Below, in pieces: positions 4,099 through 61,688 of a stretch of DNA of 64,000 bases. Origin of the DNA: Armatimonadota bacterium (GTDB taxonomy: Bacteria; Armatimonadota; Fimbriimonadia; Fimbriimonadales; GBS-DC); the NCBI GenBank assembly GCA_037445735.1, contig JBBIJY010000010.1, forward strand, positions 3,664 to 67,663, given 5' to 3'. Each line of letters starts with the position of its first letter. Positions within the stretch are counted from its first letter, which is position 1. Under the pieces are notes generated by a model. The model saw only the letters and a program-made list of their open reading frames with translations. It had not been told where the DNA came from and did no database searches. A program made the translations under genes and the position numbers.

Positions 4099-5124
4099 TT
4101 ATAGCCCAAGTTGGGTGGCAACCGCCCAGTAGCCCTCCGATTGCAGGATGCTGGCGATTCGCTCCGCATCGCTTTGCGCGGCGCACAATGCCCCCTGCAC
4201 CGCGCCGCTGCCACACAGCAGCACGCGAAGTGCCCCCAGCGACTCCATACGCGCCCGCAATCGCAGGAGAGGTTCCAGCGCGTCCAGCACCACCGCCTCG
4301 AAATCGTTATGCAGGAAAGGCACGAGCTGTTCGGGCGTCTGAATCGCGCCCTGCTGGATGGCTCGCGCTAAGGTTTCTGTTGGGGCGAATTGGCGCGTCC
4401 GTCTTAACGACTCAAGGCGACTGGATAGCTGCGTGTACGCCCATGCGGTGGAGACGCCCACATCGGGCGGTCGAGCCAGCACCCACTCGAAGGGCGGCAG
4501 CGCGGGCAACGGTTGCACCTGCTCGCCCCGCCCACCCACACGCGCGCACGCCCCACTCAAAAAGAAGGGCACATCGGAGCCAAGCTGCCGGGCGATTGCC
4601 AGCAACTCCATTTCAGCCCCCTCACCCGTACCCTCTCCCCCACTGGGGGAGAGGGCTGAATGAACTCCCTCTCCCCGCTGGGGAGAGGGTTGGGGTGAGG
4701 GGTTATTCGCATGCGCAAGATGGGAAGCCCCCTCACCCGTACCCTCTCCCCCACTGGGGGAGAGGGTTTTATGGGACCTTCGCTCCATAAAATAGCGCAC
4801 GATTGCGGCGGCGTCGCTACTGCCTCCGCCGAGACCTCCCTGCGGCGGAATGCGCTTGATCAGGCGCACATGCCAGCCTGATCGCGCCGTCGCGCCCACC
4901 TGCTCCAGCGCCCGCCAGACCAGATTGCGCTCATCGGTCGGCACGGCGAAGCCCTCCACCTCCAGCGCAATCGGCGGCTGGCGATTCGGGATGGGCGTCA
5001 GAATCAGCGTATCGTGCAGGCTCAGCGTGTGCATCACGCTCGCGATGGTGTGGTAGCCATCCTCGCGACGCTCCAGCACCTCCAGTGTGAGGTTGATCTT
5101 GGCAGGCGCGTGCAGCTCAATCAT
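4099..5124 (-). CDS. ispE: 4-diphosphocytidyl-2-C-methyl-D-erythritol kinase, carrying a ~55 aa in-frame insertion derived from palindromic repeats
   Basis: N-terminus [24 protein letters not shown] is diagnostic of IspE (GHMP kinase). The 341 aa length exceeds the typical ~285 aa because of the segment [13 protein letters not shown]...[24 protein letters not shown] encoded by the 4617-4766 repeats. Confidence 0.85.
4617..4766. repeat. Three adjacent copies of a GC-rich nested palindromic element (CCCTCACCC-gta-CCCTCTCCCCC-act-GGGGGAGAGGG; CCCTCTCCCC-gct-GGGGAGAGGG-tt-GGGGTGAGGG) inside ispE
   Basis: Copies at 4617-4655 and 4728-4766 are identical; 4667-4702 is the complementary half. Related copies occur at 31008, 35353, 37275 and 48706. 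Confidence 0.85.
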
Positions 5125-30863: not shown

Positions 30864-31007
30864 CCCCTGCCCTTCCTGAACGAATAAGATATTAGCATGG
30901 TTCCTTCCTCCTTCTGCCCTCTGCGAAGCGGGGCAGGGTTTATATCCGCTTACGGGTGGGTTGAGCCCCTTCAGCCGTACCTTCCGCCTTAGCGGGGCGA
31001 ATGAAAA

Positions 31008-31050
31008 CCCTCTCCCCCACAGCGTGGGAGAGAGGGCACGAGGGTGAGGG
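31008..31050. repeat. Intergenic copy of the GC-rich palindromic element (CCCTCTCCCCC-acagcg-TGGGAGAGAGGG-cac-GAGGGTGAGGG)
   Basis: Lies between the ECF sigma start (30863) and the flotillin stop (31062); same arms as the intragenic copies. Confidence 0.8.
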
Positions 31051-31061
31051 CAAGGTCAGCC

Positions 31062-32948
31062 CTAATCGTCTTTGCCCTTCTGTCGGGCGGGTGGTTCTGG
31101 CTCGCTGGCAGGTTCGGCGGAGCTGGAGGCGGCTGCCGAATCGGTCTGCGCCTGCATGCGCACGGCGCCGATGCGCTGGGCAATCTGCATCAGCTGCTGT
31201 GCCAGCTCGCTGAAGCGCCCGTTGCCATCGCCGATTGCCTGCAGTCCGCTCAGTGCGCCGTCCAGTGCCACGCCCAGCCCCAGCCCTTTTGCGTACTGTT
31301 CGGTCATGCGGGCGAGCGTCTCGGGGTCGCCGAAGATGTTCATGTTGCCGCGGCTCATGAACTGCCCGATGGAGCGTGCCAGTTCGACCTGCACATCGCG
31401 CTGGGCTTCCACGCGCAGTTTCTCCAGTTCGAACTTGAGCGCGGCTTCGCTGTAGGTCTGGCGATATTCGAGCGCCTGACGCTCCACCTCCACGCGGGCG
31501 CGTTCCACCTCCACCTGCTCGCGGGCGATGTTCACATCGACCATCTTGATGGCGGTCTCGCCGCGGGCGACCTGCTCGCGTGCCTGCGCTTCGGCTTCGG
31601 CGCGGATGCGAATCGCTTCGGCTTCCAGCTCTGCCGCCTGCTTCTGCGCTTCAGCTTTTTTGACCTCGGCGAAAGCAGCGACCTGCACTTCGGTCTCGCG
31701 CTTGATGCGCTCCTGTTCGATCTGCTGTTTGGCAGCGATAAGCTTGGTCTGCGCTTCGCGTTCGGCGGCGGCAAGTTGCTGCACGGTGATAATCTGCTGG
31801 TTCGCCTTTTCGCGTTCCGCCTGCGCTTCGAGGGCTTTCTTTTCGGCTTCGGCACGCTGGCGCTCGGCTTCCGCGACGGCAATCTGCTTCTCGCGTTCGG
31901 CAAGTTCAATCGCTTTGGCGCGTTCGATGTCGGTCTTCTGCAGCTCCTGTTGCTTGAGCAGCAGCAGGCGGTCGCGCTCGATGGCGGCGACGCGCACGGC
32001 TTGCTCCTGCTGGATTTGCGCTTCCTGCACCTGGCGTTCCTGCTCGATGCGGTAGGTATCGGCTTCGCGTTTCTTCTCGGCTTGCGCTTTGGCGATTTCG
32101 GCTTGCTGGGCGGCTTCGGCTTCCGCCTGCTGACGCTCCAGCTCCAGAATCTCCTTGCGCGTCTGCACATTCTTCAGGGTGATCTCGCGCTGCGCTTCGC
32201 GCTCCAGACGGTTGCGCTCCACCAGCGCGGCTTGCGTGATCTCGGTGATTTTGCGCTTGCCCTGCGCGTCGAAGATGTTCGTGTCCGAAAGCAGCTCCTG
32301 CGAGGTCTGGTCCAGGCGCGAGATGGTCACCGATTCGAGCGAGAGACCGTTCTGTTCGAGGTCGGCGCGCACCAGTTGCTGCACCGCGCTGGCGAAGGCG
32401 TCGCGCTGGGCATGGATCTCCACCAGATCCTTGGTTGCTGCCACACTGCGCAGGGCGGAGACCAGCTTTTCAAACACCAGTTGCGACACCGACTGGGCGT
32501 TCACCGATTTATCGCCCAGCGAGCGCGCCGCGTTCAGCACGGAGTCTTCTTCGGGTTGAACCTTGATGTAGAACTCGGCTTTCACATCCACCCGCAGGTT
32601 ATCACGGGTAATCAGCGCGTCGGGTCCCTTGCGCTCCACCTCCAGCTTCATCGTCTCCAGCGAGACGGGCACTTTCTGGTGTAGAAACGGCACATACAGT
32701 CCGCTTCGGTCGATCAGCACGCGCCGTCCACGCCAGCCAGTGATGACATAGGCGAGATTGGCGGAGGGGCGCAGGTAAAGGTGCTTGAGCGCGAACAGGT
32801 AGCTGGACACGAAGATCAGCACACCGCCTACAACCCACGACGCAATCGACTGGGCGAGAGTCCAGTTGGCGACGAAGTTGCCGCCGACAAAGCCCAGCAG
32901 CGCCAGTGCTATGCCCAGTATCAGCATCAATCCCAGCATTGTGTTCAA
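31062..32948 (-). CDS. Flotillin-like SPFH/band-7 protein (YqiK/FloA type) with long EA-rich coiled coil
   Basis: N-terminal TM and SPFH domain (LETMKLEVERKGPDALITRDNLRVDVKAEFYIKV), followed by about 250 aa of E/A/Q/R repeats. Confidence 0.85.
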   Translation of the reverse strand: MNTMLGLMLILGIALALLGFVGGNFVANWTLAQSIASWVVGGVLIFVSSYLFALKHLYLRPSANLAYVITGWRGRRVLIDRSGLYVPFLHQKVPVSLETMKLEVERKGPDALITRDNLRVDVKAEFYIKVQPEEDSVLNAARSLGDKSVNAQSVSQLVFEKLVSALRSVAATKDLVEIHAQRDAFASAVQQLVRADLEQNGLSLESVTISRLDQTSQELLSDTNIFDAQGKRKITEITQAALVERNRLEREAQREITLKNVQTRKEILELERQQAEAEAAQQAEIAKAQAEKKREADTYRIEQERQVQEAQIQQEQAVRVAAIERDRLLLLKQQELQKTDIERAKAIELAEREKQIAVAEAERQRAEAEKKALEAQAEREKANQQIITVQQLAAAEREAQTKLIAAKQQIEQERIKRETEVQVAAFAEVKKAEAQKQAAELEAEAIRIRAEAEAQAREQVARGETAIKMVDVNIAREQVEVERARVEVERQALEYRQTYSEAALKFELEKLRVEAQRDVQVELARSIGQFMSRGNMNIFGDPETLARMTEQYAKGLGLGVALDGALSGLQAIGDGNGRFSELAQQLMQIAQRIGAVRMQAQTDSAAASSSAEPASEPEPPARQKGKDD

Positions 32949-35297: not shown

Positions 35298-35352
35298 ATA
35301 AGCAACCCGGTCGCAGCAGATGAAATGGATCGGACCGTCCAGAACGAATAGA

Positions 35353-35382
35353 CCCCCTCTCCCACAGCATCGGGAGAGGGGG
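35353..35382. repeat. Intergenic palindromic element copy (CCCCCTCTCCC-acagcatc-GGGAGAGGGGG), likely a bidirectional terminator between convergent sthA and the PEP-CTERM gene
   Basis: Perfect 11-bp inverted repeat with 8-nt loop located between the sthA stop (35297) and the stop of the minus-strand gene (35402). Confidence 0.6.
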
Positions 35383-35401
35383 AATGAGCGCTTCGCGAGA
35401 C

Positions 35402-36157: not shown

Positions 36158-36472
36158 ATGTATGCGATTGTTCAAACGGGCGGCAAGCAGTATCGCGCGG
36201 AGCCAGGCGCCATCATCAGTGTGGAAAAAATCGAGGCGGAAGCGGGCAGCCAGATCGAGCTGACGGAGGTGCTGCTGATTCGCACCGACGAGGGTCTGCG
36301 CGTGGGCGCGCCTTACATCGAGGGCGCGAAGGTGATTGCCGAAGTGGTACGACAGGGCAAGGGTCCCAAGATTATCGGGTTCAAATACAAGCCGAAGAAG
36401 AACGAGCGTCGGCGCTGGGGTCATCGCCAGCAGCTGACCTGGCTGCGCATCAAGGAGATTGTCGCAGGCTAA
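36158..36472 (+). CDS. rplU: 50S ribosomal protein L21
   Basis: [26 protein letters not shown]...[22 protein letters not shown] matches bL21; GGAGG RBS upstream. No rpmA follows. Tracked ORF 36017..36472 has a spurious 5' extension. Confidence 0.9.
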
Positions 36473-37653
36473 AGCCGGGTTGCCAGCAAGCCTGCGGCGC
36501 AGCCGGCGAGGAAGTAGGCGCGTTCCGCATCGGCGTCGCGCCCCATCGTGGTCAGGATCGCCCCCTGATCGAGGAGCCATTCCAGCACGGCATCGGCATC
36601 GATAATGTGCAGGGTGTGGCGATCTGGTATCGCCGCGCCCTGCAAAGCGTTCAGCACCCGCTCCATCTGGTCAGCGGGCAGTTGCGGCACCGCGACCGTG
36701 CAGGGCAGGAGCGCGACCTGGCTCAAAACGGTCAGTGAGTGGTGGCTCACGCCCTGATGGCGTGCGCGGGTGTCGCCGAAGCTGATGCGCAGCGCTGCGA
36801 TGGGCTGACCGCCAAGTGTGCCGATGGCGTTCAGCGCCAGCCCCTGATCGAGACCCGAAAAGCCCCAGCGCGTACCCGTGCCCAGATTGCCCGGACCCTG
36901 ACCGACCACCGCGAAATCGGCGTTCAGCGCGTGGCGGGCGAGCAATAACGCGCTATAGAGGTTCACCGCCTCCAGCTCGCCCCCGAACGCCTGCCCGACT
37001 GTGATGGTTCCTGCCAGCCAGCCGCGCTCCGTGAGCCAGCTCACCACCTCGCTGAAGCCGAGCGCGAGCGCCGCCGAATCGGTCATGATGTAGACGATTC
37101 GGGCGTCGGGGCGCGCGTAGCGAATCGCGCCCACCACAGGAATCAGATGGCTGTGCAGCAGGATCGCGACGGTGGGCATCCCCTTCAGTGTGCCTGTGAG
37201 CGCGTCGGGATAGCGATTCTCGGCGGCGGGCGCGGCGAACTGCAACGGCGTGTAGCGCAACCGCATCAGCAGCTCCCCCTCACCCGTACCCTCTCCCTCG
37301 CTGGGGGAGAGGGGCAGATGGCTCCCTTTCCCCTCTGGGGAGAGGGTTGGGGTGAGGGGTTGCATCGGCACGACGGCAGGCTCTGCCCCCTCACCCATGC
37401 CCTCTCCCCCGCACGCGGCGGAGAGGGTGGATAGCGCGGCAATCACAAAATCGTAGCCGCCAGTGCCCAGCTTCAGCGCGGTCGCCGTGGTGTTGAGCAG
37501 CACAGTATCGCCCGCCTGCAGGCGTCCATTAAGCGTGATGTAGTTGAGCGCGTTGCGCCGCTCCGCATCGGTGCGCACCTGCAGGTACTGCACGCCCGAC
37601 CGCTCGCGCACCACCTGCTCCACAATCCCGACCGCTTTGTAAAGCACGCTCAC
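36469..37653 (-). CDS. Conserved hypothetical protein (possibly DUF3866-like) carrying an in-frame palindromic-repeat insertion
   Basis: N-terminal [34 protein letters not shown] block. The internal segment [46 protein letters not shown] is encoded by repeat copies at 37275-37429. Family assignment is from memory and unverified. Confidence 0.45.
37275..37429. repeat. Three copies/halves of the GC-rich palindromic element inside the 36469..37653 CDS
   Basis: CCCCCTCACCCGTACCCTCTCCCTCGCTGGGGGAGAGGGG / CCCCTCTGGGGAGAGGGTTGGGGTGAGGGG / CCCCCTCACCCATGCCCTCTCCCCCGCACGCGGCGGAGAGGGTGG. Confidence 0.85.
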
Positions 37654-48534: not shown

Positions 48535-49395
48535 TCAGCGGCTCTCCAGCAGGAGAGCGGTCTGGGCGAGCGCGTAGAAAGCAGCCATCTCGGTGCGCAG
48601 GACACGATCCCCCAGTGAGACGGGGATACAGGCATATTCGGAGATCATCGGTTCCCGCTCGTGGGGGGTGAAACCGCCCTCCGGACCGATGATGAGCGTA
48701 AGCGCCCTCACCCCCAGCCCCTCTCCCCCGCTGGGGGAGAGGGGGGAAGCACCCCCTTCTCCCGAAGCTTCGGGAGAAGGGGGCTGGGGGGATGAGGGCA
48801 CTAACAACTGGCTCAAAACCGCACTCAACAGCGGAACTCCCTCATGTTCGTCCAGCAGCAGGCGCGGATGCGGCAGGCGCTCCATCGCCGAGAACCAGTC
48901 GCCCACAATCTGGATGGCAGGGTAGCGCGCGCGACAGGCGACCTCCGCCTCTTCGCGGGCGATTGACTGCCAGCGTCGCTCCCGTGTTGCTCGCTTATCC
49001 GCATCGAGCGTCACCAGCGAGCGCTCGGCAGGTGCAAATAAAATCTGCACCGCTCCGCCTGCCGTGCAGAGGCGCACCACCTGCTCCGCCTTCTCCGCGC
49101 GCACCATCGCCTGCAAAATATACACTTCTATCGGCAGCTCGGTTGCCAGCTGCTCACGCTCCACGACGGTGAATCGCACTGGATGGGCTGCCGATTGCAA
49201 CCGCACATGGTACGCCCAGCCCGTGTTGTCCAGCAGGCAGATGATGTCGCCCTCGCGCAGACGCAGCACATGGCGCACCTGATGCGCAATATCAGGCGGC
49301 AACACGCCCGTCTCCAGCGTTTCAGGCGGCACAAAGAAGCGCGGTAGCCCCCGCGCGCTCAGCCCTTCGGGCGACGAAACACGGCGGCGACCCAT
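48535..49395 (-). CDS. rsmE: 16S rRNA (uracil1498-N3)-methyltransferase RsmE with in-frame palindromic-repeat insertion
   Basis: LPRFFVPPETL N-terminus and C-terminal SPOUT knot LIIGPEGGFTPHEREPMISEYACIPVSLGDRVLRTEMAAFYAL. The extra segment [31 protein letters not shown] is encoded by the repeats at 48706-48798. Confidence 0.8.
   Translation of the reverse strand: MGRRRVSSPEGLSARGLPRFFVPPETLETGVLPPDIAHQVRHVLRLREGDIICLLDNTGWAYHVRLQSAAHPVRFTVVEREQLATELPIEVYILQAMVRAEKAEQVVRLCTAGGAVQILFAPAERSLVTLDADKRATRERRWQSIAREEAEVACRARYPAIQIVGDWFSAMERLPHPRLLLDEHEGVPLLSAVLSQLLVPSSPQPPSPEASGEGGASPLSPSGGEGLGVRALTLIIGPEGGFTPHEREPMISEYACIPVSLGDRVLRTEMAAFYALAQTALLLESR
48706..48798. repeat. Two nested palindromic element copies inside rsmE
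   Basis: CCCTCACCCCCAGCCCCTCTCCCCCGCTGGGGGAGAGGGGGG and CCCCCTTCTCCCGAAGCTTCGGGAGAAGGGGGCTGGGGGGATGAGGG. Confidence 0.85.
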
Positions 49396-61606: not shown

Positions 61607-61688
61607 GCCCGGGTGGCGGAATGGCAGACGCGGGGGACTTAAAATCCTCTGGGGATAACCCGTGCGGGTTCGAGTCCCGCCCCGGGCA
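61607..61688 (+). tRNA. tRNA-Leu (anticodon UAA) with long variable arm
   Basis: Acceptor stem GCCCGGG/CCCGGGC, anticodon stem-loop GGGGA-CUUAAAA-UCCUC (anticodon UAA), long variable arm, T-arm GCGGG-TTCGAGT-CCCGC, discriminator A. CCA is not encoded. Confidence 0.8.

Follow-up and report, generated by a model that had tools for sequence, protein, structure and literature searches.

To our knowledge, BoxC/TM has stood as an orphan among repeat families since the early 1990s, and the subject of this text is a pair of its units that lies in frame inside a bacterial gene. The gene is rsmE, which encodes the 16S rRNA m3U1498 methyltransferase, and it sits in a 64,000-nucleotide (nt) stretch of an Armatimonadota genome (assembly GCA_037445735.1, contig JBBIJY010000010.1, positions 3,664 to 67,663 of the forward strand), called the window below. 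TM is the BoxC repeat of the 1990s, also known as the PIT element, and occurs in more than 260 genomes (PMC4666352). Table 1 of Holder et al. 2015 (PMC4666352) gives 23 copies from E. coli K-12, designated TMECO, for instance CCCTCGCCCC-TCT-GGGGAGAGGG-TTA-GGGTGAGGGG. The E. coli copies are ‘always located intergenically’, the repeat marks variable regions, and it often stands in inverted pairs of two subtypes, type A being always paired with type B in E. coli; palindromic pairs in that species lose their inner parts while a hairpin remains possible (PMC4666352). TM forms an intrastrand triplex in vitro, PIT/BoxC elements show neither promoter nor terminator activity in E. coli, and no association of TM with mobile elements was found (PMC4666352). 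The same motif is the G-quadruplex–hairpin–duplex switch HPG1/HPG2, with ‘none within’ open reading frames (ORFs) (Kaplan et al. 2016, PMC5100583).

Other classes of small repeat also invite comparison. Rickettsia palindromic elements (RPEs) were reportedly described by Ogata et al. in 2000 as selfish DNA in protein-coding genes. REP/REPIN doublets and RAYT genes are said to have been treated by Nunvar in 2010 and by Bertels and Rainey in 2011. As far as the summary in PMC10969869 goes, an RPE is a repeated palindrome found in frame in unrelated housekeeping genes, where it is translated as an extra, fold-compatible surface segment and inherited by descendants. MITEs, or miniature inverted-repeat transposable elements, are small, multicopy and of non-coding origin, have terminal inverted symmetry, and can become fused in frame to host ORFs (PMC10969869).

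Positions 48704-48799 of the window form a 96-nt palindrome with the shape of a three-way junction, or Y, in which two adjacent perfect hairpins stand within an outer stem. An earlier note on this DNA had described two nested palindromes at 48706-48798. The location was right, but the element is about 3 bases longer, and inverted repeats and folds place the two hairpins side by side, both nested in a third, imperfect stem (48704-48717 with 48784-48799) that closes them. The perfect palindrome that the note had claimed is indeed there, 32 nt long, at 48752-48783. The parts of the element are the following:

48704-48799, unstranded: whole Y element, an outward-facing BoxC/TM doublet, [T'-hairpin]-7 nt-[hairpin-T] (DNA and RNA folds, inverted repeats, nhmmer).
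48704-48717, plus strand: left arm of the outer stem, T' block, GCCCTCACCCCCAG, pairing with 48784-48799 in DNA and RNA folds.
48718-48744, plus strand: hairpin 1, CCCCTCTCCCCC-GCT-GGGGGAGAGGGG, a canonical TM hairpin with a perfect 12-bp stem (inverted-repeat search).
48752-48783, plus strand: hairpin 2, the perfect 32-nt palindrome CCCCCTTCTCCCGAAGCTTCGGGAGAAGGGGG, a variant TM hairpin in which CTTCTCC replaces CTCTCC (inverted-repeat search).
48784-48799, plus strand: right arm of the outer stem, T block CTGGGGGGATGAGGGC, a variant of GGGTGAGGG (DNA and RNA folds).

The arms of hairpin 1 (48718-48729 and 48733-48744) enclose a loop of 3 nt, and the hairpin is the same as in the E. coli TMECO table. 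As RNA, the element folds at -91.2 kcal/mol, against -55.2 ± 4.5 in 200 dinucleotide shuffles (z = -8.0, with no shuffle equal to it); as DNA, it folds at -47.8 kcal/mol (z = -8.3 against dinucleotide shuffles). Searched at gathering thresholds over the whole window, Rfam gave no RNA family over the element, its only match being a tRNA at 61607-61688.

A BoxC/TM unit, written H-T, runs from a C-rich arm, CCCTCTCCC, over a short loop to a G-rich arm, GGGAGAGGG, and on through a linker of 2-5 nt to a third block, GGGTGAGGG; as a criterion, the C-arm was taken as CCCTC(T/G)CCC(C), the loop as 3-8 nt and the G-arm as GGG(G)AGAGGG, followed by a 2-5 nt linker and GGGTGAGGG. Two such units were matched in rsmE by nhmmer, one on the minus strand (48747-48704, E 3.8e-9) and one on the plus strand (48751-48795, E 9e-5). 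The former is a canonical BoxC/TM unit, while the latter, taken to its end at 48799, is a coordinated variant (CCCTTCTCCC / GGGAGAAGGG / GGGGATGAGGG): the extra A in its G-arm, GGGAGAAGGGGG, has a counterpart in the C-arm and a mirror image in the third block, GGGGGGATGAGGG (GGGAGTAGGGGG when reversed), within 48752-48799. To judge by the sequence, this threefold coordination is consistent with a constraint that would span all three blocks. We hold with considerable confidence that the rsmE element is a doublet of BoxC/PIT/TM units, one on each strand, whose third blocks point outward, a degree of confidence that belongs to the whole of the explanation favoured here, i.e., doublet identity, old inheritance, tolerance and spread linked to DUF559 genes. 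Because the third blocks (T' and T) of the two units face outward, they pair as the outer stem and the strand folds as a Y.

The likeness to the E. coli family is nearly base for base. Units in the window read CTCCCTCTCCCC-GCT-GGGGAGAGGG-TTG-GGGTGAGGGG and CCCTCTCCCCC-AGT-GGGGGAGAGGG-TAC-GGGTGAGGGGG, and share with TMECO the three-block make-up, two linker subtypes, frequent inverted pairs, multicopy over-representation, partial deletions that leave a hairpin, and the want of a known transposase. Two traits of the family are missing from the rsmE doublet, namely the inward geometry of the pair and the intergenic location, the latter being a descriptive property of the E. coli copies and not a structural criterion. 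E. coli pairs face inward as [H-T]-16 nt or more-[T'-H], whereas the rsmE pair faces outward as [T'-H][H-T] with a 7-nt spacer; and all 23 E. coli copies are intergenic, whereas eight of the ten units in the window lie in frame within genes. Thus, the rsmE element is an intragenic variant of the known BoxC/TM family that differs in location, pair geometry and density. An exact-pattern scan with one genome per species found at least 120 stretches with the unit, and the matches listed come from many phyla (Proteobacteria, Planctomycetota, Chloroflexota, Verrucomicrobiota, Cyanobacteria, Acidobacteriota, Omnitrophota and others). The sequence is also permissive of translation. Four of its six reading frames are free of stops, the sole stop coming from GGG-TGA-GGG in one frame per orientation, which helps to explain how such doublets survive inside ORFs.

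The insertion and its host gene were delimited as follows:

48535-49395, minus strand: rsmE, 16S rRNA m3U1498 methyltransferase, 286 amino acids (aa), the host gene (ORF, Pfam, PDB matches, AlphaFold 2 with Foldseek, synteny).
48703-48801, minus strand: codons of V199-A231, the inserted Pro/Ser/Gly/Glu-rich loop of 33 residues in RsmE (translation).

The earlier reading of an in-frame palindromic repeat in a genuine RsmE holds. Pfam assigns residues 86-278 to the SPOUT domain (PF04452 Methyltrans_RNA, 1.3e-27) and, weakly, residues 41-69 to PF20260 PUA_4; the sequence matches solved RsmE/YqeU structures in the PDB; and an AlphaFold 2 (AF2) model built from 113 homologues, with a mean predicted local distance difference test (pLDDT) of 91.2 and a predicted template modelling score (pTM) of 0.88, retrieves 1vhk, 5o95, 4e8b, 1nxz and 5vm8 in Foldseek at E 1e-18 to 1e-21. 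The family features are all present, i.e., the N-terminal PUA-like domain, the SPOUT knot domain and the conserved GPEGG loop, and the prmA-rsmE-T2SSF gene order is preserved among relatives. On both sides of the insertion, the ORF and the conserved RsmE motifs run on uninterrupted.

Within the protein, the insertion lies some 115 residues into the SPOUT domain, and not in the linker between the PUA-like and SPOUT domains where the earlier note had put it. The structure model that the note had proposed as a check places V199-A231 in the loop between helix 190-198 and strand 231-236, which leads into the invariant SAM (S-adenosylmethionine)-binding knot loop G237-P-E-G-G241; Pfam and the PDB alignments agree that this is inside the domain, HMMER alignments with RsmE chains splitting at the insertion (query 174-177 to 230-232). 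Residues 199-230 have no secondary structure and a pLDDT of 60-70, falling below 50 at 219-224, and are the only low-scoring residues of the model. The 33-residue insertion is thus predicted to be a floppy, disordered surface loop of the SPOUT domain. RsmE proteins of Chloroflexota also vary in length at this point.

The protein annotated by NCBI (P0001) is identical to the window RsmE save for its start codon, which it places at residue 31. The N-terminal extension that it omits (MGRRRVS...LPRFFV) is conserved in the clade, so P0001 is probably mis-started. The 3' end of prmA and rsmE overlap by 37 nt (window 49359-49395), as they do in relatives (L001 10001-10037). Readings of the insertion as an intein, a programmed bypass or a pseudogene were rejected, given that there are no intein motifs, the frame is continuous and RsmE residues are conserved on both sides.

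The history of the insertion was read from the DNA of eight rsmE orthologues (the L-numbered loci of this paragraph and the two that follow), together with protein homologues. The neighbours named by a protein search are Armatimonadota or Fimbriimonadales bacterium, in a clade that includes bacterium HR15. The full Y element occupies the same site in L003 and L007, whose proteins are 66% and 60% identical to that of the window, and all three share the left boundary GCCCTCATCCCC, the unit order and the non-canonical CTTCTCC/GGAGAAG hairpin, a variant not seen in other window copies. Folded one sequence at a time, the three elements form the same Y, and paired substitutions that compensate each other are present in the stems: hairpin A of L007 has CCTCC/GGAGG in place of CCCCC/GGGGG, and hairpin B of L003 has an A-T pair in place of C-G. 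These were read directly from the stems and the per-sequence folds, as a MAFFT alignment had hairpin B of L007 and the paralogues out of register.

Other relatives carry less. The sister genome GCA_037444405 (L001, 82% by BLASTP) has only GCCCTCATCCC-AACAGA-GGGTGAGGGC and is exactly 69 nt shorter, having kept the outer-stem block after loss of the inner hairpins; L005 has one unit and L294 a degenerate palindrome. Element-free orthologues exist in HR15 (L010), in P0010 and in a group of 250-aa Fimbriimonadales proteins. Despite lost hairpins or a missing element, L001, HR15 and P0010 retain all conserved RsmE residues. In a rough neighbour-joining protein tree, for which the loop was masked, genes that bear the Y fall on either side of the deepest split in the clade, and the element-free HR15/L010 is nested among them. 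Since the outgroups L003 and L007 have the full element, the state of L001 is derived. Most simply read, these sequences point to a single old gain, after which the element was trimmed in frame or lost, a pattern that matches the loss of inner parts reported for palindromic pairs in E. coli (PMC4666352).

The rsmE loop also varies in copy number between two metagenome-derived genes that are close relatives of each other. L008 (5510-5628) and L009 (1790-1980) have two and three tandem 78-nt modules, respectively, an in-frame variation by 26 residues; each module is a TM unit [H-T] plus a second hairpin, AGCCTC...GAGGCT, a layout unlike that of the Y doublet. Among neighbouring genes, bacterium HR15 (L010:794-3430) carries a Cas6-reverse transcriptase-Cas1 fusion gene and cas2 beside prmA-rsmE, and in L003 (1-1974) and L005 (1-1979) a ribonucleotide reductase close to rsmE contains one or two inteins (Intein_splicing plus LAGLIDADG_3).

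The doublet in rsmE belongs to a family that recurs across the window, where nhmmer finds ten BoxC/TM units at five loci, eight of them within three genes and two intergenic: three in ispE, three in a DUF3866 gene, two in rsmE and one at each of two intergenic loci. The core word GGGGAGARGGG, with at most 1 mismatch, occurs 20 times against 2.4 expected, and none of 100 shuffles reached 20. The loci beyond rsmE are:

4616-4770, unstranded: three in-frame TM units in ispE (4099-5124, minus strand), in gene sense [H-T]-24 nt-[T'-H]-9 nt-[H-T].
37274-37429, unstranded: three in-frame TM units in the DUF3866 gene (36469-37653, minus strand), with the three-unit layout of ispE.
31007-31051, plus strand: single intergenic TM unit, 11 nt past the stop of the gene at 31062-32948 (minus strand), E 3.8e-7.
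35352-35390, plus strand: TM hairpin whose third block is degenerate, in the intergenic space of two convergent genes, E 6.4e-6.

The ispE units match at 4658-4616 (minus), 4663-4704 (plus) and 4770-4727 (minus), and interrupt the GHMP_kinases_N Pfam match at model position 46 of 87; in the DUF3866 gene, the match covers 354 residues for a Pfam model of 318 positions, the conserved domain being interrupted by the TM units. Each doublet couples a unit with a TAC/CTG linker to one with a TTG/CTG linker. Inward pairs with a 24-nt spacer are present in ispE and the DUF3866 gene, and the rsmE doublet is outward. Three genes do carry such insertions, as the earlier note had counted, but among some 54 ORFs of 100 aa or more that do not overlap, and not about forty. 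The high genomic load that the note drew from this is true of the window (10 units in 64 kb) and not of the sister genome, where 35.7 kb sampled held 1 unit. Extrapolated from this one window, the density comes to ~156 units per Mb, ~30x that of E. coli K-12.

At the ispE site, the sister genome has a single unit and the window 111 nt more. Units 1 and 3 of the window are identical 40-mers, from which the sole unit of the sister genome differs at 5 positions; the 111-nt difference is bounded by two unit copies, and no MITE-type target-site duplication was found in the comparison with the sister locus (L212). IspE orthologues in the phylum carry TM-type peptides at at least three different sites. 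Judging from these comparisons, the repeat family appears to be active in the window genome. A reading of the intragenic copies as transcription terminators was rejected, as a T-run is absent and the conserved gene sequence continues.

What might spread such units is suggested by small cassettes elsewhere. In seven of the approximately 120 TM-selected stretches listed, TM units directly adjoin a DUF559 ORF (PF04480 DUF559, E 1e-30 to 1e-32, plus REase_MTES_1575); this was the only framed gene found, and no transposase domain occurs in the TM-framed cassettes. A group I intron homing endonuclease is also a member of the Vsr clade, in which DUF559 is placed (PMC3424549). To approach the association from the protein side, 80 DUF559 loci (L132-L211) were drawn from metagenomes by protein similarity alone, with up to 1 mismatch allowed per block of the TM unit. 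A unit lay within 200 nt of the DUF559 domain in 46 of the 80, and on both sides in 24, although the 80 are the best matches to a TM-flanked query alignment, so that this 58% may overstate the association for DUF559 overall and to that extent tells against it. The geometry is fixed: 60-95 nt separate the end of the plus-strand unit from the domain match that follows it, and 10-40 nt lie between that match and the start of the minus-strand unit, while the farther flanks held only 10 TM units in 140 kb. As a control, in a collection of viral contigs, which may contain host fragments, five of the 11 closest homologues (>=46% identity; L214-L224) were TM-flanked against none of 69 distant DUF559/Vsr-like genes.

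The fullest cassettes have the form Y-ORF-Y, with an outward doublet as in rsmE, in direct repeat, on both sides (L151, L149, L157, L218). In several of them, by reading of the sequence, the T block stands 1-9 nt before the ATG or GTG, at the Shine-Dalgarno position. The R-type unit of the window is 92-95% identical (blastn-short) to units at cassette ends, e.g., in L132 and L165. E. coli itself has a single DUF559 gene, ycjD, which ends within a degenerate TM hairpin, CCCTCTCCCTGAAAGAGCGAGGGGG (L131:1030-1840, K-12 fabI-ycjD-sapF); a ~40-nt duplicate of its own 3' end follows downstream, and then TMECO #9. Some 2050 of 5426 complete E. coli genomes (approximate count) lack ycjD, and the site in them is not empty but holds a TetR and RND efflux island with a breakpoint beside TMECO #9. 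A literature search found no report linking DUF559 or YcjD with BoxC/TM.

TM units also stand in frame within genes of other phyla, among the TM-selected stretches listed. They occur in Mfd between the UvrB-interaction and D3 domains (L014:3457-3494), in an ABC transporter between its membrane and ATPase domains (L018:5785-5823), and inside the adenylation domain of the NAD-dependent DNA ligase LigA (L092:5040-5074). In two metagenome-assembled genomes of Betaproteobacteria, the methionyl-tRNA synthetase (MetRS) contains a whole in-frame TM-DUF559-TM cassette (L012:1307-1794, L030:2111-2649): the PF04480 domain sits between the anticodon-binding and the C-terminal tRNA_bind domains, bracketed by two inverted TM units. 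As read from these two loci, a nuclease domain and its flanking repeats appear to have been fused into an essential enzyme. In Pseudomonas crudilactis (L017:232-756), three direct TM units recur ~151 nt apart, each at the end of a longer module that is itself repeated, and one inverted unit stands upstream of them.

Set beside the other described systems, the rsmE element resembles RPEs in its way of working: it, too, is one of several in-frame insertions in unrelated conserved genes (rsmE, ispE, DUF3866), and it adds a loop to RsmE with the fold otherwise intact in the AF2 model. This is likeness and not membership, the G/C-rich composition making homology implausible. RPEs are ~100-150 bp long, AT-rich and confined to Rickettsia, whereas TM units cross phyla, and TM doublets have a candidate partner gene in DUF559, whereas RPEs have none. 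REPIN/RAYT systems are similar in that short palindromic units form inverted doublets, with many solitary copies and a small gene flanked on both sides. The flanked gene, however, is a DUF559 nuclease of the Vsr-fold PD-(D/E)xK type instead of an IS200/IS605-type Y1 transposase; TM has no GTAG head, and REPs are extragenic by definition. Unlike MITEs, for which size, terminal symmetry, copy number and in-frame fusion are the points in common, TM doublets yielded neither a target-site duplication nor a related insertion sequence transposase.

The rsmE insertion is most probably selfish DNA that is tolerated, and not a new function of the protein. The element would have entered the RsmE loop in an ancestor of an entire clade within the Armatimonadota, and would persist as a passenger, the loop tolerating it and RsmE having no need of it. 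Its hairpin symmetry may be upheld by selection on DNA or RNA structure, by repeat-driven repair or by gene conversion; it decays through in-frame deletions that keep the palindromic symmetry. Spread of the family may be linked with small cassettes that consist of a YcjD-like DUF559 gene (Vsr-fold PD-(D/E)xK) and doublets on its flanks; by analogy with REPINs and RAYTs, solitary doublets such as that of rsmE would be the non-autonomous form, and the arrival of the rsmE, ispE and DUF3866 copies may be linked to the DUF559-encoding cassette family. A wider model can be put forward tentatively, at a little short of an even chance. BoxC/TM repeats would be the non-autonomous partners of a YcjD-type DUF559 nuclease, with Y-DUF559-Y as the full element and solitary Y copies either derived from it, in the manner of REPINs, or serving as its targets; the cross-phylum 35-nt unit would be accounted for by a cassette that spreads horizontally, and in at least one Armatimonadota clade doublets would survive preferentially in frame, remodelling the loops of RsmE, IspE and the DUF3866 protein over the long term.

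Several observations weigh against this account. Neither the window nor ~100 kb of sampled relatives holds a DUF559 gene, so mobilisation in the window lineage is putative; moreover, we know of no Vsr-fold nuclease that transposes DNA on its own. Neither a target-site duplication nor a clean empty site was found at rsmE in the comparison with L001, or at ispE. Pure neutrality sits uneasily with the element being 82-86% identical in nt between orthologues where the flanking rsmE coding sequence is 70-77% identical, figures that low-complexity G/C runs inflate; the structure or the peptide may be under selection, or gene conversion or the low complexity itself may account for the difference. Finally, the differing tandem arrangement in L008 and L009 makes more than one colonisation of the rsmE loop possible.

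That last point could be taken further, to a loop that is a hot spot, struck repeatedly and independently by TM elements in different lineages, which we regard as unlikely. The 78-nt period of the [H-T]+spacer units in L008 and L009, so unlike the Y doublet, would follow naturally from separate arrivals, and the ispE gene offers a parallel in its TM-like insertions at three or more sites across the phylum and in window copies that look recent. The boundary GCCCTCATCCCC, the unit order and the CTTCTCC hairpin common to the window, L003 and L007 nevertheless argue for one arrival there, and the states of L001, L005 and L294 are explained most simply by deletions from, or decay of, the same element.

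Exaptation of the insertion is, in our estimate, a rather poor prospect. The loop, or the very stable mRNA or DNA structure behind it, would then serve RsmE or its expression, for instance by adding a surface that binds 30S, by making translation pause ahead of the knot-forming C-terminal portion, or in mRNA stability. Retention among orthologues at 60-66% protein identity, the raised nt identity discussed above and the compensatory changes that preserve both hairpins are what such a role would leave behind, and it is suggestive that the insertion lies directly upstream of the trefoil-knot segment. Yet the closest relative, L001, has deleted both hairpins, and HR15 and P0010 do without the element, with every conserved RsmE residue kept. 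The same family, moreover, occupies the unrelated ispE and DUF3866 genes and intergenic DNA, the loop is predicted to be disordered, and the peptide is the mere product of a TM unit in an open frame, from a family whose PIT/BoxC members lack promoter or terminator activity in E. coli (PMC4666352).

We give still less credence to growth of the element in situ, by template-switching or slippage during replication at a small hairpin like the GCCCTCATCCC...GGGTGAGGGC stem of L001. An outer stem alone does exist in L001, copy number has changed in place between L008 and L009, and target-site duplication was not seen; but the inner hairpins are near-exact copies of a unit present at four other window loci and in many phyla, which would not be recreated, and the L001 state is derived, as noted above. 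An assembly artefact, or a dead gene with an accidental ORF, is scarcely credible: GC-rich genomes do yield many long spurious ORFs and palindromes can misassemble, but the two halves of the ORF lie in a single frame and each matches RsmE, homologous elements recur in independent assemblies (P0003 on 16-17 contigs), and the NCBI annotation (P0001) gives the same protein apart from its start codon.

The probable passenger in rsmE bears first on how the family is seen. Hitherto regarded as strictly intergenic motifs of DNA structure, BoxC/TM repeats can reside in frame within essential genes and be passed on there over deep divergence. They are a source of protein loop insertions comparable with Rickettsia RPEs, in a family that spans many phyla, and for annotation this is a warning that peptides of the type ...PLSPxGGEGxGVR... 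within enzymes are repeat-derived. The stereotyped framing of YcjD-like DUF559 genes by doublets also supplies a testable candidate for the enzyme behind the BoxC family, and with it the question of what spreads BoxC becomes experimentally accessible in E. coli.

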